Shown: positions 32,780 through 57,253, numbered from the stretch's first letter. The stretch is 64,000 bases of DNA from Candidatus Micrarchaeia archaeon (GCA_041650395.1 JBAZLG010000002.1:63050-127049), one strand, 5' to 3'. The notes: a model not told the origin generated them from the letters alone. Program-made: numbers and translations.

Positions 32780-33196
32780 ATGGCATACATGCGCGGCCAG
32801 GGAAGCACTGAATTCCTCTATGCCGCAATCTTCTCGCTACTTTTCTTCACAATTGCAATCATTGTCTACGTCCAGAGCCAAAACGACGCCAATGCCCTTT
32901 ACGCCAGCGCGAGCCTGCAGAGGGTGTGCATAGCCCTTGCAAGCCAGGTGTCGGCGGTCTCGGCTGCAGGGGACGGCACGGGCGCAGCAATAGACCTGCC
33001 GGAATTCCAAAACGGCGTGGCTTACGGCATATTCGTGAATGGCAGCGCTTCGGGCATATCGGTTTACAGCGGCAACAGGACGCAGGGGTGCAGGATGACG
33101 ACGATGCTTGTCTCAAACGGCACTGCCGCCGCTTTCCCTGCCACTAATTTCACAAGGATTGAAAACAGGGGCGGGACAGTATATTTCGAGGCGTGA
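32780..33196 (+). CDS. Class III signal peptide (type IV pilin-like) protein, putative minor pilin
   Basis: The N-terminus MAYMRGQGSTEFLYAAIFSLLFFTIAIIVYV has an RGQ cleavage-type motif followed by a hydrophobic helix. Its C-terminus resembles the partial ORF at 63849-64000. Confidence 0.7.
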   Translation: MAYMRGQGSTEFLYAAIFSLLFFTIAIIVYVQSQNDANALYASASLQRVCIALASQVSAVSAAGDGTGAAIDLPEFQNGVAYGIFVNGSASGISVYSGNRTQGCRMTTMLVSNGTAAAFPATNFTRIENRGGTVYFEA

Positions 33197-33200
33197 GACC

Positions 33201-33677
33201 ATGCGCGGGCAATCACTCATCATCGACTACATGGCGGGGGCTTTCCTGTTCCTTGTCATGTTCGCGTTCTTTTTCGTAATCTGGGGGATTTACGCCAACA
33301 TGTACTTCTCCGCCCAGGCGAGGATGGAACTTGACAGCACGGTGCTTTCCGTGTCCCAGTCCCTGCTCTCCTCCGGCGGCGAGCCAGTCAACTGGACCGC
33401 CGACCCCATGGCGGCAAAAAGGATAGGGCTTGCCTCGAGGCAGAACGTGCTTGACTGGGCAAGGATAGACTCGCTCTCCTCGCTTTCCTATGCGGAGCAG
33501 AAAATCAAGCTGGGCATAGACAGGGATTTCGTGATAAGGATTGACAGCGCGGAAGGCGCGCGGCTTGCGACAATAGGCAATGAGCCGAATTCCACAAGCA
33601 GGTCTGCGGAGATTTCGAGGTTTGCGGTCCTGGACAACAAGCCGGTAAGGGTAAGGCTGATGGCTTATGAGGCTTAA
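33201..33677 (+). CDS. Pilin-like protein, putative minor pilin
   Basis: The ATG at 33201 gives MRGQSLIIDYMAGAFLFLVMFAFFFVIWGIY. It is homologous by eye to 63308-63859 (HRGQILSNDLVIALSVFMAIVLVSFYIWNL). Confidence 0.7.
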   Translation: MRGQSLIIDYMAGAFLFLVMFAFFFVIWGIYANMYFSAQARMELDSTVLSVSQSLLSSGGEPVNWTADPMAAKRIGLASRQNVLDWARIDSLSSLSYAEQKIKLGIDRDFVIRIDSAEGARLATIGNEPNSTSRSAEISRFAVLDNKPVRVRLMAYEA

Positions 33678-34095
33678 GGGATTCGTGTTCACGCTGGACG
33701 CCACCTTGGGCGTTTTCCTAATGGTGCTCGCGCTATTGGCAATCACGCTCATATCGAGCCAGGCCGAATCCGACCCCTACGCGTCTATAAACGCGCTTCG
33801 CCAGTCGCATGACATGCTCGCCGTTCTTGACGCGCAAGGCTACCTTTCCCAGTCCAATTGCACTGCCATAGGCGGGTACCTCAACCAGACATTGCCAAAA
33901 GGCATGGGCGGCGCAGTCCAGATTGACACGTATTACAAGGACATAGGCGGGTTCGCGTTCCTCTCAAGCGTCGCCTGCGGCGCGGCAGTGCCGCAGAACA
34001 AGAGCGTTTATTCGGTGGAATACGGGCTTGCAAACATGAAAAACGGAAGGGCTTCGAACTATTCAATAGCGAGGATGCAGTCATGGCAGGAATAA
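33667..34095 (+). CDS. Pilin-like protein, putative minor pilin
   Basis: The N-terminus is MRLKGFVFTLDATLGVFLMVLALLAITLI. Its counterpart in the second locus is 62683-63297 (RRPGFILTFEAVFALSVLFLAG). Confidence 0.65.
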   Translation: MRLKGFVFTLDATLGVFLMVLALLAITLISSQAESDPYASINALRQSHDMLAVLDAQGYLSQSNCTAIGGYLNQTLPKGMGGAVQIDTYYKDIGGFAFLSSVACGAAVPQNKSVYSVEYGLANMKNGRASNYSIARMQSWQE

Positions 34096-34916
34096 CGCAA
34101 AAGTCAGGCAGGAAGGGGATTTTCTTCGCCTTGTCAGCCCTGCTGCTGGCATCCGTGCTCATAGCCCTCGCGTCAGGGGTGTCGGACGTCTCATCGAGGA
34201 CAAGGAGGACTGCGACCGCGCTCTTGGACACCGACTTTGCCGCGAACGCGCACGCTGACGCGCAGGCGCAGGTGGCAAAGATAATGTCGGAATGGGCGAA
34301 TGTCACATGCGAGAACAATTCCGTCTCCATATCCGAATCCCTGCCGATTAAGGCCGGATTCGGTTCGGACCTGCAAACGCTTTCGGAGTTCTACTCCCAG
34401 TATGCCAGGGCGAATGTGACCGTGAACATGACAACGCTGGCGCAGGGGAGCTATGTGATAGAGCCGCAGGGGCTTGAAGTCTCGCATACGCCCGAACTCG
34501 TGGATTTCAGGAATCCCGGGCCAGGCGAGGGGGGCCTGGTCAGGTCGATAAACATGACACTGCTTTTCCCGGCAGGGGCCATTGACTCCGCGGAGTGGGA
34601 CCAGCTTTCAAGCGCCGCGCCCGGAACAGGCATGAACGTGTCTGTCAGGGTCATGGACGCGAGCTATACAGTGTACAGGACATTCACCGCGGAGGTCCAG
34701 CGCGATGCAACAAGCGAAATCAACATAAGCCAGGGAGGGGTCGAGGTGGCCCATGTCAGGTTCTACGACCCATCTTCTTGCCAGATATACCACACGAACA
34801 TGCTGAATTTAAAAGCAATGATTGAGATGTCAAACCCCGTGTACGTGCAGGCGCATGACAACATAACCGCTTCGGTCGGCAGGGCGGCAAAAAGCGCGCC
34901 TGCCAGGATATGCTAG
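34083..34916 (+). CDS. Pilin-like protein, putative minor pilin
   Basis: The N-terminus is SGRKGIFFALSALLLASVLIAL. Its counterpart is 61674-62678 (GISRGFIFTLSTILLVSSLVML). It overlaps the upstream gene by 13 nt. Confidence 0.65.
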   Translation: MAGITQKSGRKGIFFALSALLLASVLIALASGVSDVSSRTRRTATALLDTDFAANAHADAQAQVAKIMSEWANVTCENNSVSISESLPIKAGFGSDLQTLSEFYSQYARANVTVNMTTLAQGSYVIEPQGLEVSHTPELVDFRNPGPGEGGLVRSINMTLLFPAGAIDSAEWDQLSSAAPGTGMNVSVRVMDASYTVYRTFTAEVQRDATSEINISQGGVEVAHVRFYDPSSCQIYHTNMLNLKAMIEMSNPVYVQAHDNITASVGRAAKSAPARIC

Positions 34917-34923
34917 GTGGAAA

Positions 34924-35595
34924 ATGATGAAGATTTCCGAAATAATGAGGAAAAAATACCTCTCCTTTGACGCTAACGACAATTTCTACCACTCTGCGAT
35001 AAAGCTCTTGCGCAAAAAACAGAGGGAGGCGCCCGTAACGAGGGCAGGCAGGCTGGTAGGCGTGTTCTCGGTTTCAGACATAGCAGGCTCGCTTGTGCAC
35101 AAGGACCTTATCGGAAAAGTGGTCAGGGAAGACCTGAAAAAGGCGAGGGCGGAGACTGTCAGGAAACACATGACAAAAAAGACGCTTTACCTTTCAGAGG
35201 ACGCCGACCTGGTGTCCGCGTTCCTGTTCATAACCCACAAGAACCCTGACTCGATACCCGTTGTCGACAGGAAGGGCAACCTGGCAGGCGTGGTGCTTGC
35301 CGCCGACCTCAAGCGCGAGATGCTGAAAACCCTGTCCGAAGGCGCAAGCGCCGGGGAGGAGGAGAAGGCAGTCGCGGACGTAGTCAAGGCGGACGAGAGC
35401 GCGCCTGCGCAGACTGCAATAGACAGGATACTTTTCCACGTGCAGAAAAACGGCTCCGCGCAGGCCGACGAGCTTGCAAAGACATTCAAGATACCAGTAG
35501 AGGAGGTAGAGGAATACGCCGAAAGCCTTGAAAAGCACGGCCTGCTGAAGGTGGAATACAGCCTGCTTGGAAAAATGACCCTGAAAAAGATATGA
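34924..35595 (+). CDS. CBS-pair domain protein with a C-terminal winged-helix-like domain
   Basis: Two CBS-like repeats are visible (GRLVGVFSVSDI and IPVVDRKGNLAGVVLAADL). The C-terminal ~60 aa (IDRILFHVQKNGSAQADELAKTFKIPVEEVEEYAESLEKHGLLKVEY) resemble the N-terminus of the ATPase at 59880-61631. Confidence 0.7.
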   Translation: MMKISEIMRKKYLSFDANDNFYHSAIKLLRKKQREAPVTRAGRLVGVFSVSDIAGSLVHKDLIGKVVREDLKKARAETVRKHMTKKTLYLSEDADLVSAFLFITHKNPDSIPVVDRKGNLAGVVLAADLKREMLKTLSEGASAGEEEKAVADVVKADESAPAQTAIDRILFHVQKNGSAQADELAKTFKIPVEEVEEYAESLEKHGLLKVEYSLLGKMTLKKI

Positions 35596-35617
35596 AAAAG
35601 CGCGGGACACGATTACA

Positions 35618-37108
35618 ATGGCAACAAAAGTTTCCGATAAACCCCTTGAGAGCTACAAGATAGTGGCGGACGGCGTCGAGGCCTCAATCACGATAACCAA
35701 GGAGGCCGGCAGCGTCCCGATTTATTCCGTCAAGGCGCCGCGCCCCGAAAGCGCCACAGCGGCATACCTGGAGACAATCAAGGGCGAGCTCTTGAGAAAC
35801 ATCAGGCTCACGTCGGCGGAAGTGCTCGACATCAAGCTGATGGAGGAGCTCAAAAAGAAGTTCTACGGCCTCGCGGTAAAGCTTGTGAACGAGAGAATAC
35901 CCAACCTGCCGGAAGCCAAGGCCGCAGAGTTCGCAGGCATAATGGTGCAGGACCTGTTGGGCCTTGGCGACATAGAATTCCTTCTCCGCGACGACCTGCT
36001 CGAGGAAATTTGCGTCAACACCGCCCGCGAGCCTGTCTGGGTATACCACAAGAAATACGGCTGGTGCAAAAGCTCCATCAGGATCGACACGGAAGCCAAG
36101 ATATGGGACTACGCGAGCCTCATAGGCAGGCGCGTTGGCAGGCAGATAACTGCCCAGGACCCGCTCCTTGACGCCTTCCTCGCCACTGGCGACAGGGTGA
36201 ATGCGACCCTCGCGCCCATATCGATGTTCGGCAACACGATTACGATCAGGAAATTCGCGAGGAAGCCGTGGACTATAACGGACCTGATACTCTCAAAGAC
36301 CATTTCAGAGGAGGTCGCGGCCTTCATCTGGCTTGCGATGCAATACGAGCTCAACATAGTGGTGTCTGGCGGCACGGGCGCGGGTAAAACGTCCATGCTC
36401 AACGTGCTCTGCTCGTTTCTCCCCCAGAACCAGCGCGTGATTTCAATAGAGCAGACAAGGGAAATCACGCTCCCGTCATACCTGCAATGGGTGCCAATGG
36501 TAGTCAGGCAGGGCGGCAGGGACGGCAGGGGCGACGTCACAATGCTTGACCTGATGGTAAACTCCCTGCGCATGAGGCCCGACAGGATAATAGTCGGCGA
36601 GGTCAGGCGCTCGGAGGAGGCGGAAGTGCTCTTCGAGGCGATGCACACGGGCCACTCCGTCTACGCCACGATGCACGCGGAAACCGTGTTCGAGACCTTC
36701 AAGAGGCTTGTCAGCCCTCCGATTGAACTGCCAGAAGTGGTATTGGAATCCCTCCATTTCGTGCTCGCCATGTACAGGGACAGGAGAAGCGGCATAAGGC
36801 GCGTGTTCGAAATCGGCGAGCTTGTGCCCTCCGAGAGGGGCGGCAATGTCAGGGCGAACATAGTCTACCGCTGGCGCTCCTCGCGCGACAAGATAGAGCA
36901 GCAGAACCCCAGCGTCAGGATGCTTGACACCCTGCGCACCTACACGCGCATGGACGACGACGAGATAAAGGAGTCCATGAAGGAGAGGGCCGCGGTGCTC
37001 TCCTACCTCGCGGCGAAAAAGATAAACGACGTCGACAGCGTGGGCAGGACAATCGTCGACTTCTACGAGGACCATGACGGACTGATGAAAAAGATAGGGT
37101 ATAAGTGA
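35618..37108 (+). CDS. Type IV pilus/secretion ATPase (FlaI/PilB/TadA family)
   Basis: The 496-aa ORF has Walker A (GGTGAGKTS), SIEQTREI, RMRPDRIIVGEVR and EAMHTGHSVYATMHA. Confidence 0.9.
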   Translation: MATKVSDKPLESYKIVADGVEASITITKEAGSVPIYSVKAPRPESATAAYLETIKGELLRNIRLTSAEVLDIKLMEELKKKFYGLAVKLVNERIPNLPEAKAAEFAGIMVQDLLGLGDIEFLLRDDLLEEICVNTAREPVWVYHKKYGWCKSSIRIDTEAKIWDYASLIGRRVGRQITAQDPLLDAFLATGDRVNATLAPISMFGNTITIRKFARKPWTITDLILSKTISEEVAAFIWLAMQYELNIVVSGGTGAGKTSMLNVLCSFLPQNQRVISIEQTREITLPSYLQWVPMVVRQGGRDGRGDVTMLDLMVNSLRMRPDRIIVGEVRRSEEAEVLFEAMHTGHSVYATMHAETVFETFKRLVSPPIELPEVVLESLHFVLAMYRDRRSGIRRVFEIGELVPSERGGNVRANIVYRWRSSRDKIEQQNPSVRMLDTLRTYTRMDDDEIKESMKERAAVLSYLAAKKINDVDSVGRTIVDFYEDHDGLMKKIGYK

Positions 37109-37112
37109 GGCC

Positions 37113-37988
37113 ATGAAAGTCCCGTTTTTGCTCCTCCCGCCAAGGTTCGCAAAGCCCATGTCGAGGCCTTTCGTGGGCATAGGCTCGGCCCTTGCAAAAA
37201 GGTTCAAGTTCATTGAAAAGGAGATTTACAAGACAGACCAGTCGGCAAAGGCAAAGGACTACGCGACCCTGTGCGTGTTCAACGCGTTCGTCTATTTCGC
37301 CCTGGTCGCAATACTCGCGTGGGCGATGCTTCACAGGCTCGAATTCGACAGGGACTGGCTCTGGGCGCTTGTCTCCGGCGCGACTGTCGGCATCATAGTC
37401 TTCATGGTCAGCATGGTATACCCGCGCTGGCTTGCGAACAAGAGGATAGCGTCTATTGACAAGGAACTGCTATTTGCCGCCAGGCACCTGAGGATACAGG
37501 TCACGGCTGGCGTGCCGCTTTTCGAGTCTATCGTGTCCGCCTCGCACGGCTACGGCTCCGTGTCTGACGAATTCGAGAAGGTGGTGACGCAGGTCCAGGC
37601 GGGGATGAACCTCGCGGACGCGCTTGAGGATTCCGCCATGAGGACGCCGTCGTATTATTACAGCAGGATACTCTGGCAGATGGCAAACGGCGTCAAGGCG
37701 GGGACTGAAATCGGCCCGGTGCTCTCGGACATAGTGGAATTCCTCGCGGAGGAGCAGAGGATAGAGGTGAGGAACTACGGCGCGCAGCTCAACACCCTTG
37801 CCATACTCTACCTGATGGTGTGCATCATTGTCCCGACAATCAGCCTGATTTTCCTCATGGTCATATCCTCTTTCGTGGACCTGCCGATAACTGACACGGT
37901 GCTTGGCGGGATACTCGGCGCCATGATATTCATACAATACATGTTCATCGGCCTGATAGAGAGCAGGAGGCCGGCGGTGTCCATATAA
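37113..37988 (+). CDS. Type II secretion system F-domain membrane protein (TadB/FlaJ-like platform subunit 1)
   Basis: The 291-aa ORF is polytopic with a single T2SS-F-like cytoplasmic domain (LLFAARHLRIQVTAGVPLFESI...). It is homologous to 58940-59842. Confidence 0.8.
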   Translation: MKVPFLLLPPRFAKPMSRPFVGIGSALAKRFKFIEKEIYKTDQSAKAKDYATLCVFNAFVYFALVAILAWAMLHRLEFDRDWLWALVSGATVGIIVFMVSMVYPRWLANKRIASIDKELLFAARHLRIQVTAGVPLFESIVSASHGYGSVSDEFEKVVTQVQAGMNLADALEDSAMRTPSYYYSRILWQMANGVKAGTEIGPVLSDIVEFLAEEQRIEVRNYGAQLNTLAILYLMVCIIVPTISLIFLMVISSFVDLPITDTVLGGILGAMIFIQYMFIGLIESRRPAVSI

Positions 37989-38956
37989 TGGCGACAAACC
38001 CGGCGTTCTCCGCACTTTCAAAGTATAAGGCCTACTGGCAGGACATGCTCAAATACAACAACAGGGAGAGCAAGGACTTCCATTACAAGCTGCTTTTCGG
38101 CTCCCTGGCGGCTTCCGCAGCGGCAGCCGCGTTTTTCATCGGCAGGCCGGCAGAAGGCTTCGCAGCCGCCATTGGCGCTTTTGGAGTCGTGCACCTTTTC
38201 GAATACGTCAGCCTTACCCTTGGCGCCAACTCGCGCGCGTCAAAGATAGAGGAGGTGCTTCCCGATTTCCTCTCGCTTGTGGCAAGCAACATCCGCTCGG
38301 GGCTCACGCCGGACAAGGCGCTCATAGTCTCCGCCAGGGACGAGTTCGGCCCGCTCACCGAAGCCATAAACAGCGCGGGCAAGAAAAGCATCACGGGCAT
38401 GCCCCTTGACCAGGTCATGCTTGGCATGCGCGAGAACATCAAGTCACCCATACTCGAGAAGACCATAAACCAGATAGTCGAGGGCATGCACTCCGGAGGC
38501 GACATGGCGGAGCTTCTTGAGAAGACGGCGCTTGACATAAGGAAGTTCAGGTCCGTGAAAAAAGAGGTCAATTCCGTAATACTCAATTACGAGCTTTTCA
38601 TCATTGCCGCGATAACCTTCGGCGCGCCGCTGCTCTACGGGGTTTCAACCTTCCTTGTGGACATCATGATAAGGATAAGGGGGAACATAGACACCAGCAG
38701 CGCGTCTTCCATCGCCGGGGGCGTGAGCATATTCAAGGGCAAGCTGCTTTTGACTGCCGACGGCGTGACGTTCTTTGCAGCGCTTGCCATCATGATAACC
38801 GTCTTTTTCGGCTGCATGGCTGTCGGGATAATGGGTTCTGGCAAGCGCGTGGACGGAATAAAGTATTTCCCCATACTCGCCCTGATAGGCCTTGCCCTTC
38901 TCTTTGGCATAAGGCTTGGGCTCAATGCCATGCTTAGCGGAATAGCAGGGTTCTAG
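37988..38956 (+). CDS. Type II secretion system F-domain membrane protein (TadC/FlaJ-like platform subunit 2)
   Basis: The 322-aa ORF starts in a TAATG overlap with the upstream gene. IEEVLPDFLSLVASNIRSGLTP...GGDMAELLEKTA is homologous to 57886-58926. Confidence 0.8.
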   Translation: MATNPAFSALSKYKAYWQDMLKYNNRESKDFHYKLLFGSLAASAAAAAFFIGRPAEGFAAAIGAFGVVHLFEYVSLTLGANSRASKIEEVLPDFLSLVASNIRSGLTPDKALIVSARDEFGPLTEAINSAGKKSITGMPLDQVMLGMRENIKSPILEKTINQIVEGMHSGGDMAELLEKTALDIRKFRSVKKEVNSVILNYELFIIAAITFGAPLLYGVSTFLVDIMIRIRGNIDTSSASSIAGGVSIFKGKLLLTADGVTFFAALAIMITVFFGCMAVGIMGSGKRVDGIKYFPILALIGLALLFGIRLGLNAMLSGIAGF

Positions 38957-39199
38957 GAAGGGAACAGGATAAAGGCAAGGGAAAGCAAAAGCCTGGCCTG
39001 CGCAAGGCAGGCGCAAAGCGCGGGAAGGGGGGAAGAAAGGCAAAAACATAGCCTGCGCCACGCAGGATGCCGCCTGGCATGAAAGCAGGGTTGGATAGAA
39101 AAAACACATCGGCCGCCATGAATCGCAGCATCAGCGCATGGACTGGGCCGCATATTTGAGAGTTAGAAAAATTATATCATGCCAACATGGATGGAATAA

Positions 39200-39241
39200 A
39201 GTGGAAAAAAGAATAAGAAAAAAGAAGAAGGAAGGATGCCC
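39200..39241 (-). terminator. Oligo-T tracts downstream of the pilin gene
   Basis: The minus strand carries T6-T7 runs (plus-strand A-runs at 39205-39210 and 39217-39223) directly after the stop at 39242. Confidence 0.45.
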
Positions 39242-39700
39242 TTAAGCAACCTTGCCTGTCAGTGTGCCGTCTGTCACATAGGCGAAATTGGACGTCAGGT
39301 CCGTGTAGCCAATCCTCACCTTTGCAGTGTAGCCGGAACCGGTTGTCAAGCCAGTGGAGTTGCCAAGGTCAACCACGAGGTTGTCCGTTGTAGAGCCGCT
39401 TGCAAGTGTAACTGCCGGTGAAAGCGTGCCAGTCGACTGGCCTATTGTGACGTTTAGCGTGTCAAGCCTGATCTGCTGGCCCACCTGGTTTGAAAGCTTC
39501 ATTGTAAGCTGGCCGTTTGAGCCCATCTGCCATCCCGCGACCGCGACGCCTGAAAATCCGCTTGCCTTGTTGCCAACGAAATTGCTGACATCAAATATTC
39601 CAAGCGCGAAAAGCACTGCCGCGATTATCACAACAAGTGCGATTGCCCAGCCGTACGTCATGAGAAAGTCAAGCGCTGCTTGCCCTTTTCTAGAATTCAT
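39242..39700 (-). CDS. Type IV pilin (class III signal peptide), probable major pilin of locus A
   Basis: I prefer the ATG at 39700 (MNSRKGQAALDFLMTYGWAIALVVIIAAVLFALG), with GGTGATC (SD) 3 nt upstream and CTTTATTAAG (TATA-like) about 35 nt upstream. The ORF-track extension to 40027 is implausible. Confidence 0.85.
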   Translation of the reverse strand: MNSRKGQAALDFLMTYGWAIALVVIIAAVLFALGIFDVSNFVGNKASGFSGVAVAGWQMGSNGQLTMKLSNQVGQQIRLDTLNVTIGQSTGTLSPAVTLASGSTTDNLVVDLGNSTGLTTGSGYTAKVRIGYTDLTSNFAYVTDGTLTGKVA

Positions 39701-39896
39701 CTGATCACCTTGAATTTTGCTTTCAATTTTCCCCTTAATAAAGCTTTTGCCCCGTAGAGCGTGCCGGGGCGCGCCAGCCGCGGGCGCGCCATGCGGCAGG
39801 GCAAGACACGCATTTACCCCTGCTGACACAACTTGCCCGCCCAACGGCGCCGGACTTATGCAAGGTTTAAATAGTGAAGGTCTCAAAGCAAAATGC

Positions 39897-40742
39897 ATGG
39901 TACAAAGCATAGAAAGGGTGCCCACAGGCCTGCCCGAATTCGACAAGATGGTAGAAGGCGGCCTGCCCCGCGAAAGCGTAAACCTGGTCTCGGGCGGATG
40001 CGGCACGGGCAAGAGCACGTTCGCCATGCAGTTCCTCTACTACGGCGCAATGTATTGCGAAGAGCCGGGCGTCTACGTTACCCTCGAGGAAGAGCCTGAA
40101 AAGCTTGTCAGGAACATGGCTCTTTTCGGCTGGGACATTGAAAAGCTCATAACGGACAAGAAGCTCACGGTCATAAAGCCCGAAGTGTACAAGTTCGATT
40201 CCATAAAGCAGATAATAAGCGACGCCATAGACAGGGTCGGCGCCAAGAGGCTTGTTGTGGACTCCTACTCCGTGCTTCTCACCTACTTCTCCGACCCGTA
40301 CGAAATCCGAAACGGCCTTGTCCAGCTGGACAGGGAAATCAAGAAAATGGGCTGCACTGCGCTTATCATATCCGACATAAAGGACAAGTCGGAGATATTC
40401 TCCACAACGGGTGTCGAGGAGTTCATAGTCGACGGCGTCATAGTATTGCACATGCTAAAGGACAAGGGCAGGCCATACGAATACAGGCGCGCCATATCCG
40501 TGCGCAAAATGAGGGCCACCAAGCACCCGCTGACATATTACCCGTTCGGCATAACCGAGAAGGGCGTGTCAGTCAAGGGCAAGGGCATGTCTGGCATGGG
40601 TTCCGGCACAGGGACCGGCACTGGCGGCGGCGCCCCGGTGAAGAGGCAGAAGGCGAAGAAGGAGGAGCCAAAGGAGGACATAATAGACCTCGGGGAACTC
40701 AAGGCCAAAGGCAGCCACTCATGGAAATGGAAACATCTTTGA
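39897..40742 (+). CDS. KaiC/RecA-superfamily ATPase (single domain, FlaH/ArlH-like)
   Basis: I prefer the ATG at 39897 (MVQSIERVPTGLPEFDKMVEGGLPRESVNLVSGGCGTGKSTFAMQF). It has a Walker A motif, a Walker B-like LVVDS, and a Gly/Lys-rich tail. Confidence 0.8.
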   Translation: MVQSIERVPTGLPEFDKMVEGGLPRESVNLVSGGCGTGKSTFAMQFLYYGAMYCEEPGVYVTLEEEPEKLVRNMALFGWDIEKLITDKKLTVIKPEVYKFDSIKQIISDAIDRVGAKRLVVDSYSVLLTYFSDPYEIRNGLVQLDREIKKMGCTALIISDIKDKSEIFSTTGVEEFIVDGVIVLHMLKDKGRPYEYRRAISVRKMRATKHPLTYYPFGITEKGVSVKGKGMSGMGSGTGTGTGGGAPVKRQKAKKEEPKEDIIDLGELKAKGSHSWKWKHL

Positions 40743-40749
40743 AGGTTGA

Positions 40750-43155
40750 ATGCCGCAGGGGTGTTGGAACTTGAAGGCGCAGGCATCGCTTGAACAGCTC
40801 GTGGTCATCGGCGCGGCGCTGGCATTCATCGCAATCGCATTCTACATAGCAGCAAGCATGTCGGCGGAGAGCATCAAGCTCGCGCAGGCGCAGGATTCGG
40901 TCGAGCGCCTCGCCTCCGCGGCGGATTACGTTTATTCCATAGGGCCCAACACGAAGGAATACGTGACAGTTTTCCTCCCTGCCGGGATAATCTCGACCAA
41001 CACAACGGGGAAGAGGGTCTTGATCAGCCTTTCGACCACCGCGGGCAGCACGGACGTTTACGAGAACACCAGGGCAGACCTGACAGGCACGCTTGAGCCA
41101 AAGCCAGGCAGGCAGAAAGTGCTTGTCGAATACCTGCCGACAGGGAAGGTAAGGCTTGGCGAGGCGGGGCTGACATGTTACCCGAGCTACATAGTTAAGC
41201 AGCTCAATGCAGGCGACACCGCGCAGGACGCCCTCGCATTCTCAAACAACGCGGAATTCAACGTGACCGGGATAAGCTTCAATTACACGGGCTCGGCAAA
41301 GGATTTCACCACCCTCGGCTTAGTGCCAGGCTCGCTTCTGGCAGGCGAATCCGCCAATTCCACGCTCTCATACGACATACCGGCCCAGACGCAAAGCGGC
41401 GTGTACGGCGGGGTCATATCGCTCGATTCCGCGAACGGCGGCTCGTGCACGATACAGGTGTCCCTGAAAGTCAATGGCGTGCCCACGTGCGCCGGCCTTT
41501 GCGCAAACGGCGGCTATGCCACAGGCACGTGCAGGGCGTCCCCGTCCCAATGCGTTGCAAATGGCGAGGACTATTCAAGCCCCGGCGACATCGGATGCGC
41601 TGGCGGCTCGCCAAGCTGCTGCTGCGGGCCGACCCAGGACTTTTTCGGGCCGATTGTGACAAGCATATACCACACTCCGGAAAACGCCAGCACCGCGGAC
41701 AATGTCAGCATATATGCCACTTGCAACGACTCGGAGACCGGCGGGCTGTACATCAGCTCTTCCATGCTGCAGGTAGACGGCGGCGCGTGGATAAGCATGA
41801 ACGCGACGGACGGGACGTTCTCGGACTCGGTGATCGAAAGCTCCAGCGCGTTTGTCGGGATGCTTGCGGCCGGGCAGCACATCGCCATAGTCAAGTGCGC
41901 CGACACTGCGAACAACACCGGGCCACTCGGATATTACTATTTCAACGTGTCCCTCGCGGACGTATACGGGCCGATAATAACGAAACTCAACCATACAGAA
42001 AGCGCGCCCACGACCCTTGTCAACCTGACCGAGGACGCGACGGCAACGGACTATTTCACTGGAAACAACGACATAACCGCTTGCTACATGAAGCTTAGAA
42101 GCCCAGGGGGGGTAGAGACTGCTTGGCTTCCAATCCCCGCGTCGGACGGCGCCTATGACTCGCCAACGGAGGACTTCTCGCACGATTTCGGGCAGCTCTC
42201 CTCCGGCATACATACCATAAGCGCCTACTGCACGGACTCCAAGGGGAACAACGGCGGCCAGTTCAACGACACCTTCGGCGTCGTGACCGTGGACATGATG
42301 CTGATAATAGACAGGTCGGGCTCAATGGCATGGCCCATAACAAACTACACGGACGGCAGCCTGGATTCGACAAAGAACACCGACCTGACCCTCGTCAAGA
42401 GCCTCGTAGTCGGGACCAAAAACGGCGACCTTGCCAACGTGTCCATAGAAACCAGGACAGACACCTCCGGCTGCAGCGCGCTCTACGAGGCGCGCATTGG
42501 CTCGAACGTGATAGCAAGCGGGAACAGGACGTCGACTTCCTATGGCTACAACTATTTCTATAATATCAACATTTCCGCGTACAGCCCGCCATACACTGTG
42601 GATTTCTACCTTGCAAAGTATCCCAATGGCGGCTGCACGGCATACATGCGCGGCGTCGGTGTGACGCAGATGCCCGACAAGATGCAAAGCGCCCAGGACG
42701 CGGCGGATTATTTCGTTGACATTGTGAGCAACACGTCAAAGGTCGGGCTGGTGTCCTACTCGTCAAGCGGGACAACTGACATGCAGCTTGCGGACATGAG
42801 TTCCATCGCGAACAAGAATTCCCTGAAAAGCGCGATAAACGCGCTTTACGCCAGCGGCGGCACGTGCATAGAATGCGGGCTTGACAACGCGGTCACGGAA
42901 CTGATATCTTCAAGGGGGAGAAGCGACTCCGTAAGGGTGGCAATACTTCTCACGGACGGCGTGAGCAATTACGGCAATTCTGTCGACGGCGCGGTCTACG
43001 CCAGGAACAACAACGTTACAGTATATACCATAGGGCTTGGAAACGACGTGGACGACACGGAACTCACAAACATAGCGCTTCTGACAAACGGCAAGTATTA
43101 CAAGGCCCCCGACGCGGCGACGCTTTTGCAGATATACAGCAACATAGGGCAGTAG
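40750..43155 (+). CDS. Pilin-signal protein with a Cys-rich region and a C-terminal von Willebrand factor A domain (putative pilus adhesin)
   Basis: The N-terminus NLKAQASLEQLVVIGAALAFIAIAFYIAAS is class III signal-like. The vWA MIDAS motif is MLIIDRSGSM, with LLTDGVSNYG and VYTIGLGNDVD. A Cys cluster reads CAGLCANGG...GSPSCCCG. Confidence 0.8.
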   Translation: MPQGCWNLKAQASLEQLVVIGAALAFIAIAFYIAASMSAESIKLAQAQDSVERLASAADYVYSIGPNTKEYVTVFLPAGIISTNTTGKRVLISLSTTAGSTDVYENTRADLTGTLEPKPGRQKVLVEYLPTGKVRLGEAGLTCYPSYIVKQLNAGDTAQDALAFSNNAEFNVTGISFNYTGSAKDFTTLGLVPGSLLAGESANSTLSYDIPAQTQSGVYGGVISLDSANGGSCTIQVSLKVNGVPTCAGLCANGGYATGTCRASPSQCVANGEDYSSPGDIGCAGGSPSCCCGPTQDFFGPIVTSIYHTPENASTADNVSIYATCNDSETGGLYISSSMLQVDGGAWISMNATDGTFSDSVIESSSAFVGMLAAGQHIAIVKCADTANNTGPLGYYYFNVSLADVYGPIITKLNHTESAPTTLVNLTEDATATDYFTGNNDITACYMKLRSPGGVETAWLPIPASDGAYDSPTEDFSHDFGQLSSGIHTISAYCTDSKGNNGGQFNDTFGVVTVDMMLIIDRSGSMAWPITNYTDGSLDSTKNTDLTLVKSLVVGTKNGDLANVSIETRTDTSGCSALYEARIGSNVIASGNRTSTSYGYNYFYNINISAYSPPYTVDFYLAKYPNGGCTAYMRGVGVTQMPDKMQSAQDAADYFVDIVSNTSKVGLVSYSSSGTTDMQLADMSSIANKNSLKSAINALYASGGTCIECGLDNAVTELISSRGRSDSVRVAILLTDGVSNYGNSVDGAVYARNNNVTVYTIGLGNDVDDTELTNIALLTNGKYYKAPDAATLLQIYSNIGQ

Positions 43156-43294: not shown

Positions 43295-43421
43295 CGCCGA
43301 GGAGGAGATTTGAACTCCTACTCCACGGAAGTGGAACTAGATTTCGCGCGCGGGATTTTCCCGCATGCTAGTGTTTTGTTGATCTCGAGTCTAGCGCGTT
43401 ACCGGGTTCCGCCACCTCGGC
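43295..43421 (-). tRNA. tRNA-Ser (anticodon CGA) with a ~41-nt intron in the anticodon loop
   Basis: The hand fold gives acceptor GCCGAGG/CCUCGGC, a 3-bp D stem, anticodon stem CUAGA/UCUAG with loop CUCGAGA interrupted after position 37, long variable arm UCCAC-UUCC-GUGGA, T arm AGGAG-UUCAAAU-CUCCU and discriminator G. The mature length is 86 nt. Confidence 0.85.
43343..43383 (-). other. tRNA-Ser intron (approximate boundaries)
   Basis: AUCAACAAAACACUAGCAUGCGGGAAAAUCCCGCGCGCGAA lies between the anticodon and the 3' strand of the anticodon stem and contains the hairpin GCGGG-AAAAU-CCCGC. The exact splice sites are ambiguous by 1 nt. Confidence 0.65.
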
Positions 43422-44080: not shown

Positions 44081-47000
44081 CTAGGCCTGCGTGCTCGTGA
44101 ATGTCAGGGTCGCGGTGTTGGTCTGCGGCGGGCTGTCGGAATCTATTCTTACAAGCACATAAGCCCAGATAGTGTCCTGCGAGTCGGAGAATGCGAGGCT
44201 TGGGCAAATAGTGATTGCAGAGGCAGACAAGTCCTGCGCGCTAGCATTGATTGAGGGGCACGAGCCTGTCTTGTTCTCCGCGCCAAACATCCGGAAAAGG
44301 GGGCTTGAGCCGCCTATGAAACCTGCAGCTGCCTTGTCAGAGGCGACCGTGATTGAAACATTGACATTCCCCTGGTTTTCAACTAGGAAGCCTGTGTCCC
44401 CGCCAGTCACATTTGAAGATTCGTTTGACGTAAGCGTAATCGACCCGGCAGCGGGCGGGATTACCGGCACAAACGAGAATGCGCTGTTGTTCATGGCGCT
44501 TGAAGTGTAAACCGCAATCTGGTTTGTCGAGGTAATGTTTATGCCTATGGTGCCGCTGGAATTGGAAGGGCCGCTGCCTGCGCCGCCGAATTCGCCGGAG
44601 CCGTTCACGCCGTAGTCGGAAAAGCCCGAGACATTGAAAACAAGGGTTTGCGAGGTTGAATTCCAGGAAATGCCAGTGCAGCGCGGCGCAGAACACGCAG
44701 TGCCATTTTGTATTATAGTGGCAAGGTCCTGCGCGAATGGCTCATAATAATAGATGACAGGAGTGGCAGCGCCGGAATATACGCCGGTAAGGTCCATCAC
44801 AAGTGTTGCCGTGGAATTGAAGCTCGAATCCAGGGCAGAGCTGTTGACAGAGATGAAGCCATTGCCTATGACAACGTGAGAATCAAAGTCCTGGTTTGCG
44901 GCATTGACAAAATGCGCAGGCGGGAACCTTATCCTGCCCTTGCCCGGCATGTCAAGGGTCATGTTCTCAACCCTAGTCAGGTCTGCGATTCCAGAAAAAT
45001 TGGTGGTAAGGCCGCTGAAAGTCGAGAATGCCGGGGAAGTCACCTGGCTTATGCTTATCTGGCCGCCAGGGAGCCATGCTACGAGCATGGCCGCAGGCAC
45101 TGCGCTTGCCTGCGTGGAGTTGGAGCCTGACGGGAAACCGCCGGAGCCCATGTAGCCGAAGCCGACCAGCGAGCCGAGGGTTATGCCGCTTACTGAAACA
45201 CCGTAATTGTTGCCTGCGGCAAGGGTGGAATTTGACACGCCTATGCCGCTCGAGTCAGTGGCAAAGGAGGAAACCGCTTGCTGGCTCGAACTGTTGGTTA
45301 TGTTGAAATTAGCTGACTGGACGGGCTTTGAATAAGCATCAAGTGTTGCGCCAAATGCCTTTTCGGGCTTGTATGTGGCAGAAAGGCCTGAAAACGCGCT
45401 TGAGGAATTGACAAGGTAGAGGTCTGCAAGGCCGGAAGCATAGCCGGAGGAGCTTATGCTGAAAGTCGAGCCGGAAGGCACGTAGGAATTGTAAATCCTT
45501 ATGTTCCTTGCAGGATTGGCATTGGAAGTCATGCACGGAGTGCCGCAGTCGCCAGCGTGTGCGCCGGTGCCGCCGGAACCGCCGCCCGTGCCGCCGTAAT
45601 ACACGCCGCCGCCGCGCTTGCCTGAGCCTTCGCCCGCGCTGCACCTGCTATTTGCAGTGTTGAGCTGCGTGCCTCCATTGAAATTCATTGAGCCTGAAGC
45701 GAGGCTTGCTGACTGGAACGGGACGAAGAGAAGGCTGCCGCCCGCGCCGCCGCCGCCGCAGCCCGAACCGCCGCTGCCGCCGCCCTGGCCGCTTGTGCCG
45801 CCCACGCCTGAAAGCGTGCCTGTGAAGTTAATCCTGCCCGCTACAAGCCTGATGGTGCCGCCGGAACCTCCGCCGCCCGGATGGTCGCCTGCTGCCGGAG
45901 CGCCCTGGCCGCCGCTCACATTTATTGTTCCTGCCATATTGATGTTCTTGGCATAAATGGAAACAAGGCCGCCCCCTGCGCCGCCTGCCGCGCCAGTGTC
46001 GGAAGTGCCGCCTGCATAGCCCCCGCCGCTTGGATTGGAGGCAGCCACAGCGTATGCGCCGATGGCATTTATCGTGCCTGAAATGTTGGCGTCGTTTTGG
46101 ATGTAAAACCATACAGAGCCGCCTGCGCCCCCATTGACGCTTGCGACAGTTACAGTGACGCCCGGGTTTATCACGAGGGACGAAAAGTTATACGCCACGC
46201 TCTGGTTGATAGTCTGGGAAGAGCTTATCACACAGTCGCCGCCGCTTACGCACCCGGCGCCGTTTAGCAGGTAGACTGCCGGGCTCACGCTGAAATTCAC
46301 GCCTGCGGAAAATATCCTGTTTTGCGAGTCATTGCATTTAACATAAATGGAATACGACTTGTTGCTTTGCAGGCCTGTGATTGTTGCAGTGTGGCTTGCC
46401 GTGCCGGCCCCGGACATGAGAGTCCCCGCGCCCGCATAAGCAAATGCCGAGTCATTGGACCATTTGCAATACGACGGCCCGCTGGTGGCTGCTTCTAGAG
46501 ACGCCTGGGTCACGGCCGAGTCAAAGGCAGCGTTAGGGGAGGGCGAGGTTATTGAAACAGACATGTTCTGGATAAAAAACGTCACATTGCTTTCGGTAAT
46601 CGTGCCGCTTGAGTTGCACCTGACAAAAAACGTGTTGGAGCTGCCGTCAAGGAGCCCGTTGAGGGTTGAACTGTGGTCAGTGGTCCCCGCGCCTGCCATG
46701 AGGGTGCCGGAGGAAGAAAAGTCAAAGCCGCTTGTTGTTCCGTATTTGCACGTCGCGCTGTCAAGCGTGGTGGCATTGAGGGAGACGCTGGATGTGCCGT
46801 ATGGGAAGGACTGGGACTGGACAGGATAGGCTATGCCCTGAGCCACGTTTGGATACCTGACAATCACTATGCCGGAGCCGCCATTGGCGCCAGAAGCGTA
46901 TTGCCGCGAACCGCCGCCGCCACCGCCTGTGCTGGCAGTGCCGGAAGTGGGGCTGGTGCCGCCATTGCCTCCGCTCCCGCCGCCGCCGGAGCCGCCCGAT

Positions 47001-47743
47001 GCTGTGCCGCTGTTGCCCGAACCGCCGCCGCCGCCTGCGTAGTATACTGACGAGCCGGTTATGGAAAACGCCATACCGGCCCCGCCTGCGCCGCCGATGT
47101 CGCCTGAAACCGACGCCTGGCCCGCTGCGCCAGCGCCGCCGCCGCCGCCTGCGGATTGCCCTCCGCTGCCAGGGCCTGCGCCGCCGCTGTTGCCATACGA
47201 GTTGGAGCCGTTTATCGAGTTCTGGTTGCTTGAACCGCCTGGCGACACGCGCGAGCCGCCGCCGCCAGAGCCGCCGTTGTTGCCCGGATTGTAGTTGGAA
47301 TTGGCATAATTCGCGCCTCCGCCGCCGCCATTCGCCACCAGTGCGTCAAAAGCGGAATTGCCGCCGTTTGCGCCATTGGAGGATGACGAAGAGCCCGCCC
47401 CGCCGCCGGAACCGCCCAAGCCCACAGTGACAGAATACGAGCCCGAAGATACCGGGAATGAAGAATGGTATTGGACCCCGCCTGCACCGCCGCCAGCCCC
47501 TTCCCAGCCGCCCGCGCCGCCTCCGCCGCCTGCGACCACCAGGACTTCAACTGTGCCCGCGCCGGAAACATTGAATGAGCCGCTGGAAGTGAAAGTGTGA
47601 ACCGTGTAATTCGTACCATTCACGATTATGGAACTCACGGAGCCTCCGGTGGCGCTGATGGCGAAAGAAAAGTGGCATAGGTAAAAAGCCGTGAGAAAAA
47701 AGGCAAATGCGGAGTATAAGACAATTATTCCTGTTTTGCGCAT
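44081..47743 (-). CDS. Giant secreted protein: glycine-rich domain, repetitive beta-rich middle, shared C-terminal surface module
   Basis: I prefer the ATG at 47743 (MRKTGIIVLYSAFAFFLTAFYL). The N-terminal domain runs YTVHTFTSSGSFNVSGAGTVEVLVVAGGGGGAGG ... GGSGIVIVRY, typical of 'glycine-rich domain' proteins. The last ~310 aa are homologous to 1018-5736 and 5784-8954. Confidence 0.8.
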   Translation of the reverse strand: MRKTGIIVLYSAFAFFLTAFYLCHFSFAISATGGSVSSIIVNGTNYTVHTFTSSGSFNVSGAGTVEVLVVAGGGGGAGGWEGAGGGAGGVQYHSSFPVSSGSYSVTVGLGGSGGGAGSSSSSNGANGGNSAFDALVANGGGGGANYANSNYNPGNNGGSGGGGSRVSPGGSSNQNSINGSNSYGNSGGAGPGSGGQSAGGGGGAGAAGQASVSGDIGGAGGAGMAFSITGSSVYYAGGGGGSGNSGTASGGSGGGGSGGNGGTSPTSGTASTGGGGGGSRQYASGANGGSGIVIVRYPNVAQGIAYPVQSQSFPYGTSSVSLNATTLDSATCKYGTTSGFDFSSSGTLMAGAGTTDHSSTLNGLLDGSSNTFFVRCNSSGTITESNVTFFIQNMSVSITSPSPNAAFDSAVTQASLEAATSGPSYCKWSNDSAFAYAGAGTLMSGAGTASHTATITGLQSNKSYSIYVKCNDSQNRIFSAGVNFSVSPAVYLLNGAGCVSGGDCVISSSQTINQSVAYNFSSLVINPGVTVTVASVNGGAGGSVWFYIQNDANISGTINAIGAYAVAASNPSGGGYAGGTSDTGAAGGAGGGLVSIYAKNINMAGTINVSGGQGAPAAGDHPGGGGSGGTIRLVAGRINFTGTLSGVGGTSGQGGGSGGSGCGGGGAGGSLLFVPFQSASLASGSMNFNGGTQLNTANSRCSAGEGSGKRGGGVYYGGTGGGSGGTGAHAGDCGTPCMTSNANPARNIRIYNSYVPSGSTFSISSSGYASGLADLYLVNSSSAFSGLSATYKPEKAFGATLDAYSKPVQSANFNITNSSSQQAVSSFATDSSGIGVSNSTLAAGNNYGVSVSGITLGSLVGFGYMGSGGFPSGSNSTQASAVPAAMLVAWLPGGQISISQVTSPAFSTFSGLTTNFSGIADLTRVENMTLDMPGKGRIRFPPAHFVNAANQDFDSHVVIGNGFISVNSSALDSSFNSTATLVMDLTGVYSGAATPVIYYYEPFAQDLATIIQNGTACSAPRCTGISWNSTSQTLVFNVSGFSDYGVNGSGEFGGAGSGPSNSSGTIGINITSTNQIAVYTSSAMNNSAFSFVPVIPPAAGSITLTSNESSNVTGGDTGFLVENQGNVNVSITVASDKAAAGFIGGSSPLFRMFGAENKTGSCPSINASAQDLSASAITICPSLAFSDSQDTIWAYVLVRIDSDSPPQTNTATLTFTSTQA

Positions 47744-47860
47744 GGTTATCCTCAAGTATAATTGAATGCAATGAATTATGCACATTTAATATATAAGTAT
47801 AACCCCTGCCAGATGAGCAGGGAAGCGTCCCCGCTGCAACGCATGGACCGCGACATCGTG

Positions 47861-48578: not shown

Positions 48579-50135
48579 TTGATGGGAACGTTCTCTCCGC
48601 CTCAAAACGTCGACACTGCGTTCAGGCAGCTTTGCGCGATTCTTTTCGGCAGGGAAGTGGGGGAACTTGCCGGTTTTGGCGAATACCTGCGCGAGGCCAT
48701 GATGCCATACACATTGGCCAAGTCGGAAAACACAGGCAGCGACGTATTCCTCTCAAACCCGTATTACCCGAAAAAGGCGCGCTTTGCCTCCCAGCAGGAA
48801 CTTGAAAAGGCGAAGCCCGCCAAGGCATCCGTAAACGACATCAAGGACATTGACTCCCTTTTCCGCGCCGCGTCGGAGAGCATGGTCTATTGCGGGGACA
48901 AGGTATTTGGCAGGAACGCGAACACGGCGCTTGTGGACAATGCGATAGACTGCATTGATGTCTATTATTCGCATAACGTGAGGAATGTCAAGCGCGGGGC
49001 CTTCATATCCTATGTGCGCGAGTCGGAATGCGTGTTCGGCATACCCGCTTTCCCGAAAATACGCTATTCGATGCGCTGCCTCGAGGGGATAAACGCAAAC
49101 AGGATGTTCGAGACGTATTACACCAACAATTCCTCTGACATGTATTATTCGTTCAACTGCAACAACTGCTCCGACTGCATATTCTGCTTCAACCTGCGCG
49201 CGAAAAGGCACGCGATTGGCAACATGGAGCTTGAGAAGGGCAAATATCTGGAACTCAAGAAAAAGCTCGCTTCCGAGATGGCGGAGCTGCTTGAGAAGAA
49301 CAGGCGCCTGCCCTCGCTTTCAGACCTGGCAGGCGGCTCAAAAGGCAAGGACATGAAAAAAGAGGAACTCATACCCACATCAAGCCCGCCGGCCTCGGTC
49401 GAGAAGGCGTGGTCCGAGGCAACTGGCATAGTGGTGGGCAGGCGGCTTCCTGGAATTTCGGATTACGAGCCATGGCTCCAGGCGCGCGCGCTGAAGGTGT
49501 TCAGGCTGAAAGGCAAGACAGGAAAATACACATACAAGCCCCAGCTGCCCCTTGTGAGGGACATACCCGGCGCAAGCCTGTGCACGAGGGACGAGGCAGT
49601 GAATATGTGCCAGCCCCTGATAACGCTTGCGGATGCGGGCGAGGGGTTTGAGAAGCTTGGCAAAAAGGCGGCAGGCAAGGCGTCTATAACCATGGAGATG
49701 ATGGAAGGCGCGTGCATGGAAGTGCCTGAAGTCACGCAGGCCATAGACTCCACCGAGAGCTGGTCCATGTGGGACGCCACGAACTCGTCAAGGTCGGCCT
49801 GCACCACCGCTGCAATCCAGTCAAAATACGCATTTGGCGGGTTTTTCAGGATGCTTGACAGCGAGTTCACGATAAACTGCTACGACGTGGTGGAATGCAA
49901 GAGGTGCCTCGAGGTCGACAGCTCGTCACGCTGTTCGGACTGTTACTTCTGCCACAACTGCGAGGCGTGCGAGAACTGCATATTGTGCTCCAATGCCAAG
50001 GGGCTGCGCTTTGCAGTCCTTAACGTGGAAGTGGGCAGGGAAAAATACATGGAAATCAGGAAAATGCTGCTTGCCCACATAGCTGACGGGCTTGAAAAGG
50101 ACAAAAGGATAGACGAGAGCATATTCGACATGTGA
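48579..50135 (+). CDS. Hypothetical cytoplasmic protein with two Cys-ladder modules
   Basis: The 518-aa ORF has an internal duplication: FNCNNCSDCIFCFNLRAKRHAIGNMELEKGKYLELKKKL and CSDCYFCHNCEACENCILCSNAKGLRFAVLNVEVGREKYMEIRKML. No family recognised. Confidence 0.6.
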   Translation: MMGTFSPPQNVDTAFRQLCAILFGREVGELAGFGEYLREAMMPYTLAKSENTGSDVFLSNPYYPKKARFASQQELEKAKPAKASVNDIKDIDSLFRAASESMVYCGDKVFGRNANTALVDNAIDCIDVYYSHNVRNVKRGAFISYVRESECVFGIPAFPKIRYSMRCLEGINANRMFETYYTNNSSDMYYSFNCNNCSDCIFCFNLRAKRHAIGNMELEKGKYLELKKKLASEMAELLEKNRRLPSLSDLAGGSKGKDMKKEELIPTSSPPASVEKAWSEATGIVVGRRLPGISDYEPWLQARALKVFRLKGKTGKYTYKPQLPLVRDIPGASLCTRDEAVNMCQPLITLADAGEGFEKLGKKAAGKASITMEMMEGACMEVPEVTQAIDSTESWSMWDATNSSRSACTTAAIQSKYAFGGFFRMLDSEFTINCYDVVECKRCLEVDSSSRCSDCYFCHNCEACENCILCSNAKGLRFAVLNVEVGREKYMEIRKMLLAHIADGLEKDKRIDESIFDM

Positions 50136-54670: not shown

Positions 54671-54767
54671 GAAAAACCCATTCGATTATTTTTTGATGCC
54701 CGCCACGGCTGGCATGGAACCTGTCCTTGCACGCCTTTATCGGGATATGAAGACTTGCACGCTCATA

Positions 54768-54775
54768 TTTATAAA
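54768..54775 (+). promoter_or_regulatory. TATA box for the KaiC-like gene 54799-55548 (leaderless-type spacing)
   Basis: TTTATAAA lies 24-31 nt upstream of the ATG at 54799, in the AT-rich divergent intergenic region between two KaiC-like genes. Confidence 0.45.
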
Positions 54776-54798
54776 GATTTTTAAAAATATAGTCATAG

Positions 54799-55548: not shown

Positions 55549-55564
55549 TTCGGCATTCCCCACC

Positions 55565-56086: not shown

Positions 56087-56118
56087 GTTATAACCCCAGA
56101 TACGGCTCCTTCATCGCG

Positions 56119-57231: not shown

Positions 57232-57253
57232 TCAAATCCCTCTAAAATACTGT

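Follow-up and report, generated by a model that had tools for sequence, protein, structure and literature searches.

A probable non-archaellar type IV pilus locus in a Micrarchaeota archaeon, with a modular vWA pilin, a CBS–winged-helix gene and a KaiC-family ATPase

A census of archaeal type IV pili (PMC4858521) found genes for KaiC-family ATPases (arCOG01171, 01174, 01175) close to the archaellum operon and to those of pili from clade 2 and subclade 4B, and often inside them. The same survey recorded two tadC genes in many clade 1 and clade 2 loci, and proteins with a vWA domain alongside type IV pili. A study of Nanohaloarchaeota (PMC9563170) remarks on DPANN pilus clusters that contain kaiC but lack a peptidase. 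A preprint (10.64898/2026.04.22.720090) defines a 'System 1' by its two platform genes, records its occurrence in DPANN and mentions that 4B and 4F loci have proteins of the CBS and RecA-like kinds in their vicinity. The subject of the present analysis is a locus of this kind, locus A, at positions 32780–43155 of a 64,000-nucleotide stretch from Candidatus Micrarchaeia archaeon (GCA_041650395.1, JBAZLG010000002.1:63050-127049), the whole of which is called the window. Locus A fits the published pattern: it extends a known kind of system and does not break it.

Locus A is read here as a non-motility, non-archaellar type IV pilus system of Micrarchaeota (DPANN), most likely employed for attachment to a surface or to a host cell, and the probability of this reading is put at roughly three in four. 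How DPANN archaea hold on to the cells that they live attached to is largely unknown. A conserved locus with a putative tip pilin, whose vWA domain bears a metal-ion-dependent adhesion site (MIDAS), is a concrete candidate for such an attachment device. Its most useful new details are the winged helix linked to the assembly ATPase and the modular vWA pilin. The eleven clustered genes are four minor pilin-like genes (p1–p4), a CBS–winged-helix gene, a PilB/ArlI-family ATPase gene, two platform genes, an inverted pilin gene, a KaiC-family ATPase gene and the vWA pilin gene. All eleven open reading frames (ORFs), and the domains assigned to them in a first-pass annotation made from the sequence, were recovered with the N-termini quoted there (ORF list for 30–46 kb, Pfam, NCBIfam), three start codons being corrected. 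The annotation's type IV filament locus with a split platform, comparable to TadB/TadC or EpdJ/K, likewise held good: two separate proteins carry one T2SSF domain each (64.7 and 47.3 bits).

The resemblance to described systems is close and uneven. Like the clade 2 and 4B pili of the census, in which DPANN were barely sampled, locus A combines a secretion ATPase with a TadC-type platform encoded, as often there, by two genes, several class III pilins, large adhesin-like proteins and a KaiC gene in or beside the operon; it differs by its putative winged-helix partner. As in the Epd pilus of Methanococcus maripaludis and in System 1, the ATPase gene is followed by two platform genes, minor pilins are numerous, and the class III signals are DUF361-like, having Q at +1 and, at +5, an acidic residue. 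Unlike the Epd cluster, locus A includes neither an EppA-type peptidase nor a MinD/FleN gene; the Epd cluster as described is in turn without KaiC and CBS–winged-helix genes, both present in locus A. The Epd major pilin has about 70 residues and no globular domain (PMC4858521), whereas the candidate in locus A has 152, and neither a short ORF with a class III signal nor a Flp-like ORF was found among all window ORFs scanned. The bacterial Tad pilus (TadA/CpaF, TadB, TadC, TadE/F, TadG) offers a split platform, pseudopilins, a vWA-type TadG and a homologous ATPase, CpaF (157 bits). Here the TadA model stays below its cut-off, Flp-type pilin, secretin, TadZ and TadV are all missing, and the context is that of an archaeal single membrane. 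The archaellum motor (ArlI–ArlJ–ArlH with ArlX/ArlCDE) has a homologous ATPase and platform, a single-domain ATPase of the KaiC superfamily and extra cytoplasmic partners. Locus A departs from it in failing the equivalog models, in having no archaellins in the locus and a split platform, and in encoding a main-family KaiC with a catalytic EE pair.

The nearest homologues of the ATPase, 94–80% identical, come from metagenome bins of Micrarchaeota/Anstonellaceae, and the source organism is a Micrarchaeota archaeon. A scan for related loci, restricted to one genome per species, gave 80 loci (labelled L001 and so on where they need to be told apart) with ATPases 43–87% identical. These are distributed over Micr-, Woese-, Pace-, Nano-, Aenigmat-, Iain- and Nanohaloarchaeota, with a few mislabelled bins, and the protein therefore represents a DPANN-wide pilus ATPase family. 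In every one of them (80/80) the ATPase gene is followed by two platform genes. Dozens of DPANN genomes show the same set of genes together, so that its clustering is not a matter of chance. In L001, whose ATPase is 80% identical, the order is pilin(-), KaiC, vWA, p1–p4, CBS, ATPase, platform 1 and platform 2; the window carries the same two blocks in reversed order. A relative at 56% ATPase identity has the vWA gene upstream and the pilin(-)/KaiC(+) pair 2.3 kb downstream. Another, at 54%, has a minus-strand KaiC gene 1.9 kb downstream, with three small ORFs between it and pilin(-).

The ATPase retains the invariant Walker A, Walker B and His box motifs, and it scores well below the cut-off of every dedicated model: 270.5 bits against 550 for the NCBIfam FlaI equivalog NF058587, 179.9 against 373 for TadA (TIGR03819) and 132 against 1000 for BasE. 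The platform halves reach 54 and 21 bits on ArlJ models whose cut-offs are 550 and 400. Compared with structures in the PDB, the ATPase is closest to AfGspE (2oap, 210 bits), followed by FlaI (195) and CpaF. A neighbour-joining tree was built on 296 columns, with partial sequences of Sulfolobus acidocaldarius FlaI, Archaeoglobus fulgidus GspE and Caulobacter CpaF, taken from PDB alignments, as references. It separates all 86 DPANN ATPases, including both from the window, from FlaI plus AfGspE at 99.5% bootstrap, FlaI being the one ArlI reference. Despite its best sequence score in the PDB, AfGspE pairs with FlaI outside the DPANN group. As a separate observation, the Anstonellales loci L004 (L004:17326-20426) and L005 contain a third, more divergent ATPase of 462 residues with a single unsplit platform gene of 569 residues, 4 kb from a cluster of the locus A type; in the tree it belongs neither to the DPANN group nor to FlaI plus AfGspE.

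Six proteins of locus A begin with a class III signal, in which [KR][GA] precedes Q, F or I and a hydrophobic helix of about 20 residues, often with an acidic residue at +5, and these signals are conserved in orthologues at related loci. The motif of p1 is kept in L001, L002, L007 and L008, and p2 orthologues bearing the identical signal were found in 12 loci. Sequons for N-glycosylation number 1.3–2.9 per 100 residues in the pilin-like proteins, the highest value being that of p1 and p4 holding eight, as against 0–0.4 in the cytoplasmic and membrane proteins, a density that supports a predicted extracellular location. None of the six matches an archaellin family in Pfam scans; p2 shows a weak match to DUF7287 (E 0.003, under the cut-off). 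The 152-residue pilin is nearly identical to its L001 counterpart at the N-terminus, and simpler loci carry between one and three copies of a homologue behind the platform genes (TadC2).

Immediately ahead of the ATPase stands the CBS–winged-helix gene, whose product has a CBS pair recognised by Pfam and, more weakly, a winged helix at its C-terminus. An AlphaFold2 model (predicted local distance difference test score, pLDDT, 81) comprises a Bateman module (residues 1–138), a disordered linker and the winged helix (165–222). By Foldseek the CBS part resembles pairs that bind S-adenosylmethionine/methylthioadenosine, c-di-AMP or AMP/ADP/ATP. A word-indexed search yielded 6 homologues; a full phmmer scan, used in its place, gave 65 representatives at E<=1e-10, most of them aligned end to end. 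When the gene upstream of the ATPase is aligned across loci, the conserved part is its last ~60 residues, that is, the winged helix. The N-terminal part varies: Micrarchaeota and one Aenigmatarchaeota locus have a CBS pair there, Woese- and Nanoarchaeota have transmembrane segments, and other loci long coiled coils. In the two main groups, a hidden Markov model located the winged helix in a gene of its own ahead of the ATPase in 30/32 and 26/35 loci. It was also found fused to the ATPase N-terminus in a second pilus locus of the window, locus B (59880–61631, residues 7–57, E 3.6e-10), and in 8 further ATPases. Longer ATPase homologues (588–643 residues), inspected for a fused winged helix, have just low-complexity Lys-rich extensions.

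Because the winged helix is fused to ATPases and precedes nearly every DPANN pilus ATPase, it is probably a physical partner of that enzyme, and the CBS–winged-helix protein is proposed to be a nucleotide-sensing partner of the ATPase. Such a partner, separate or fused, goes unmentioned in PMC4858521 and in preprint 10.64898/2026.04.22.720090. The protein might instead be a ligand-responsive transcription factor of the operon with no role at the ATPase, for its C-terminal domain matches DNA-binding winged-helix families (HTH_24, TrmB, IclR/Lrp) and CBS pairs commonly serve as sensors. A domain joined to membrane-spanning segments in Woese- and Nanoarchaeota and to long coiled coils in other loci would, however, be unusual in a repressor, and the same domain sits at the N-terminus of nine ATPases, that of locus B included. 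The winged helix is moreover the best-conserved part of the protein, and genes of this type abut or overlap the ATPase gene. The transcription-factor explanation is consequently considered unlikely, if the strongest of the alternatives.

Two further forms of the upstream gene deserve mention. In L053 (L053:7518-9995; Ca. Iainarchaeum, JAFGGZ010000056.1) it encodes 825 residues with C2H2 zinc fingers, two KaiC/DUF7504 domains and a C-terminal winged helix, a lone case in which a KaiC-like domain and the ATPase-partner domain are joined in one protein. In 'simple' loci poor in KaiC (L011, L015, L018, L019, L022, L074 and others) it encodes 350–860 residues with an N-terminal winged helix and a long coiled coil, and these proteins are reminiscent, by analogy, of a scaffold such as ArlX.

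The vWA protein was listed in the first-pass annotation as an 801-residue pilin-signal protein with a vWA domain; signal (KA/QASLEQL, the slash marking the expected cleavage site) and domain are both present, in a protein now corrected to 794 residues. Its AlphaFold2 model (pLDDT 85) starts with a helix of 50 residues (7–57) and a beta domain of pilin type. After them come three Ig-like domains, a poorly modelled Cys-rich stretch and a vWA domain (507–794) interrupted by a beta-sandwich. The MIDAS residues (DRSGS...T...D: D514, S516, S518, T698 and D729) vary little or not at all among 33 orthologues, and the metal-binding site, as judged from the alignment, is intact. Foldseek with the whole 794-residue model returned the vWA pilin PilB of Streptococcus sanguinis (E about 1e-9) and the vWFA domain of LapA. 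Its other matches were mostly unrelated Ig-repeat proteins with low TM-scores, so that only the PilB and LapA vWA matches are informative. S. sanguinis PilB (PDB 7b7p) likewise joins a pilin N-terminus to a MIDAS-bearing vWA domain. The archaeal protein differs in its identity of only ~10%, twice the length, Ig-like and Cys-rich spacers, and the beta-sandwich inserted in the vWA domain, and an independent origin of the two is likely. Short stand-alone pilins of other loci match only the N-terminal module of the vWA protein, which fits a modular pilin. Within the same relative and contig (P0144, P0014) its identity to the window protein is 49%, as against 80% for the ATPase. Fast divergence is usual for adhesins. 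The 794-residue protein is a modular pilin that probably serves as tip adhesin.

A different employment of the machinery, in which uptake or secretion (for example import of DNA or nutrients from the host) is the main job and only a short pseudopilus is made, draws on the proposal that DPANN pili import DNA or nutrients (PMC9563170). It also draws on the requirement of Epd-type pilus genes for transformation in Methanococcus (PMC10133366). Such a role sits awkwardly with a large MIDAS-bearing vWA pilin with Ig-like spacers, a build typical of adhesins, and no DNA-binding or channel component is evident among the locus proteins in Pfam scans. It is rated somewhat below the transcription-factor explanation, as a distinctly unlikely main function.

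The gene downstream of the divergent promoter encodes a single-domain KaiC/RecA-like ATPase, as annotated at first: its score of 218.9 bits far exceeds the PF06745 cut-off of 26.6. It reaches only 55 bits on the ArlH model NF052589 (cut-off 215) and 50.8 on FlaH PRK06067 (cut-off 194), as against 181 on the NCBIfam KaiC model and 160 on an archaeal KaiC-domain model. Among solved structures it matches true KaiC at 231 bits and PH0186 at 148, and no FlaH chain was retrieved at E<=1e-5. The protein belongs to the main KaiC family as defined by these profiles, and not to the ArlH subfamily. Two earlier suggestions, that a KaiC-like ATPase marks archaella and that the locus is a pilus/archaellum hybrid, are therefore unsupported. 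KaiC beside non-archaellar type IV pili has been published (PMC4858521, PMC9563170), and the protein is of a known pilus-linked regulator kind. In 15 orthologues the Walker A motif (GGCGTGKST), the catalytic EE pair (TLEEE) and Walker B (LVVDS) are aligned and kept, and since these are retained the orthologues are probably active enzymes. The KaiC proteins of the window and of L001 (L001:3344-4423) also share a tail of ~50 residues (window 40580–40742), not seen in 14 other orthologues, with a Gly/Thr-rich linker, a Lys-rich stretch and a conserved terminal HSWKWKHL.

Linkage of KaiC to the pilus genes was counted in loci whose sequence extends at least 3 kb upstream and at least 5 kb downstream from the ATPase; homologues of KaiC were scored when they reached at least 60 bits within 10 kb. 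By this measure KaiC is present in 14/16 loci near the window ATPase in the tree and in 1/19 of the sister group. As the groups of the tree are weak, a tree-independent split was also made: KaiC accompanies 14/15 loci with the winged helix at the end of the upstream gene and 1/16 of the other type (Fisher p 8.6e-7). In L009, L033, L062 and L072, from Nano-, Woese- and Pacearchaeota, it follows platform gene 2 by 1–58 nucleotides on the same strand. The association of KaiC with the locus is real and old. The first-pass annotation had named, as grounds for refutation, a gene transcribed independently and not conserved with the locus: a predicted TATA box at 39867–39874 speaks for the former, and the latter is contradicted by the counts. 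An alternative makes KaiC a bystander with no tie to the pilus genes beside it, an ATPase of general use in signalling or repair. Its own TATA box, its changing position and strand among relatives, and the abundance of archaeal KaiC paralogues (PMC4858521) would suit that explanation. It has to reckon with the skewed co-occurrence under both groupings, the placement directly after the platform gene in four loci of other DPANN phyla, the pilin(-)/KaiC(+) pair travelling as a block, and the fusion to the winged-helix partner in L053; little weight is given to it. As the position varies and the gene has its own promoter here, KaiC fits better as a regulator or accessory of the pilus than as a fixed core or structural subunit.

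That locus A is an ordinary archaellum, with ArlI as its ATPase, ArlH as its KaiC-like protein and archaellins encoded elsewhere, is almost certainly wrong: the FlaI model is the ATPase's top NCBIfam match, the ArlJ models are the top matches of the platform halves and homologues carry the annotation 'FlaI' by JGI, yet every score, for FlaI, ArlJ and ArlH alike, lies far under its equivalog cut-off, the platform is split between two genes, the 86 DPANN ATPases stand apart from S. acidocaldarius FlaI, the KaiC is nearest true KaiC and not FlaH, and Pfam and NCBIfam scans found no archaellin, ArlF/G, ArlX or ArlC/D/E domain in any locus protein, in agreement with the earlier annotation, which had seen no archaellin, FlaF/G/X or FlaC/D/E and had asked whether ATPase and KaiC fall inside ArlI/ArlH.

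Returning to the non-archaellar attachment pilus, several points weigh against it. The pilus is predicted from its genes. A prepilin peptidase is missing from the 64-kb window, as noted at the outset: no match of the Peptidase_A24 type emerged when almost every ORF of 130 residues or more was scanned with Pfam. The status of the 152-residue protein as major pilin is deduced from its promoter, size and conservation. Groups within the DPANN ATPase clade are weakly supported in the tree (bootstrap 0.13–0.68). The winged helix also matches DNA-binding families, Pfam seeing a generic winged helix, and KaiC varies across genomes in position and strand and has its own predicted promoter in the window. 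Two polytopic ORFs of locus B, 53018–53749(-) and 55565–56086(-), the only other ones in the window, were considered as prepilin peptidases and rejected: they are without a GxGD motif and have no Pfam match.

The data show directly the gene content, its conservation, the fusions and the folds; how the machine works, from signal cleavage and fibre assembly to the place of the tip, the binding of a ligand and the contacts between proteins, is inferred. A prepilin peptidase encoded elsewhere would cleave the six class III signals after [KR][GA], and a hexameric ATPase on a heterodimeric split platform would polymerise the 152-residue pilin. The minor pilins p1–p4 and the vWA modular pilin would form a priming or tip complex, in which the vWA MIDAS may bind a ligand. 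On the cytoplasmic side, the winged-helix end of the CBS protein would dock on the ATPase, the CBS pair may report adenine-nucleotide (or similar) status, and the KaiC-like ATPase could act as a regulatory switch or accessory ring on the same motor. The ATPase-linked winged helix, the CBS pair and KaiC provide handles on the control of assembly.

A broader and more tentative proposition, held to be possible but well short of even odds, is that the DPANN pilus ATPase has a dedicated cytoplasmic module. It would consist of a small winged-helix adaptor, docked on the ATPase or fused to it, with swappable CBS, membrane-anchor, coiled-coil or KaiC-like inputs and a KaiC-family hexamer that co-occurs with the short form of the adaptor. 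The module would gate a vWA-tipped host-attachment pilus by energy state, and an ArlH–ArlI-like partnership with an ArlX-like scaffold would be general and possibly older. If this is true, the partnership of KaiC and ATPase is not special to the archaellum but a general, possibly older feature of the archaeal type IV machine.

The genes of locus A form three blocks resembling transcription units (Table 1): p1 to platform 2, the divergent pilin, and KaiC with the vWA pilin. Intergenic spacing across the first eight genes is -13 to +22 nucleotides, and one operon is therefore expected; a TATA-like AATATAAA lies ~25 nucleotides upstream of p1. The 152-residue pilin gene has its own TATA box (TTTATTAA), a GGTGAT ribosome-binding site and an oligo-T run past the stop. 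The KaiC TATA box, TTTAAATA, precedes the ATG by 23 nucleotides, from which archaeal promoter rules make a leaderless transcript likely; the vWA gene begins 28 nucleotides after KaiC, and the pair appears to have its own predicted promoter. The corrected starts are ATG 33201 for p2, ATG 39897 for KaiC (in place of the first TTG of the ORF at 39717) and, most likely, TTG 40771 for the vWA gene instead of the 801-residue ORF start, because the public gene call has 794 residues and orthologues begin MKGQ.../MKAQ....

Table 1. Coordinates of the pilus loci in the window (aa, residues; a slash in a signal marks the expected cleavage site).
Feature	Position	Strand	Remarks
p1, minor pilin-like, 138 aa	32780..33196	+	signal MAYMRG/QGSTEFL; first in operon
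p2, minor pilin-like, 158 aa	33201..33677	+	signal MRG/QSLIIDY
p3, minor pilin-like, 142 aa	33667..34095	+	signal MRLKG/FVFTLDA; 11-nt overlap with p2
p4, larger minor pilin-like, 277 aa	34083..34916	+	signal ...GRKG/IFFALSA; 13-nt overlap with p3
CBS pair and C-terminal winged-helix protein, 223 aa	34924..35595	+	Pfam CBS 62.7 bits
PilB/ArlI-family assembly ATPase, 496 aa	35618..37108	+	Pfam T2SSE 116.6 bits; Walker A, Walker B, His box intact
Platform half 1, 291 aa, one T2SSF domain	37113..37988	+	matches ArlJ N-terminal half
Platform half 2, 322 aa, one T2SSF domain	37988..38956	+	matches ArlJ C-terminal half; start overlaps half-1 stop
Probable major pilin, 152 aa	39242..39700	-	signal MNSRKG/QAALDFLMTYGWA
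Divergent promoter region	39701..39896	.	sequence read directly
Single-domain KaiC-family ATPase, 281 aa	39897..40742	+	Pfam KaiC PF06745, 218.9 bits
Probable modular vWA pilin-adhesin, 794 aa	40771..43155	+	C-terminal Pfam VWA, 84.8 bits
Locus B pilin-like genes, upstream	63308-63865, 62683-63297, 61674-62678	-	
Locus B ATPase, 583 aa, N-terminal winged helix fused	59880-61631	-	winged-helix hidden Markov model
Locus B Class_IIIsignal pilins	57254-57781, 56758-57231	-	
Locus B KaiC/DUF7504 protein	53768-54670	-	

Locus B, the second pilus locus of the window, extends over 53768–63865 on the minus strand and includes, besides the genes in Table 1, two platform genes and small membrane proteins. 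The surroundings of locus A are marked by tRNA genes near both ends. A tRNA-Thr lies 1.5 kb ahead of p1, and just past the vWA gene a 127-nucleotide tRNA at 43295–43421 (-), scored by Rfam at 46 bits and unreported by ARAGORN, is probably an intron-containing archaeal tRNA. It is this tRNA-flanked locus that has its two blocks swapped relative to L001. Three very large predicted surface proteins are encoded at 1018–9182 (-) and 44081–47785 (-): a 1572-residue subtilase with LamG domains, a 1132-residue LamG protein and a 1234-residue protein with a glycine-rich domain. LamG proteins also flank the pilus locus of L001. Finally, a 518-residue ORF at 48579–50135 (+), which has no Pfam match, contains many CxxC-type cysteine pairs toward its C-terminus.

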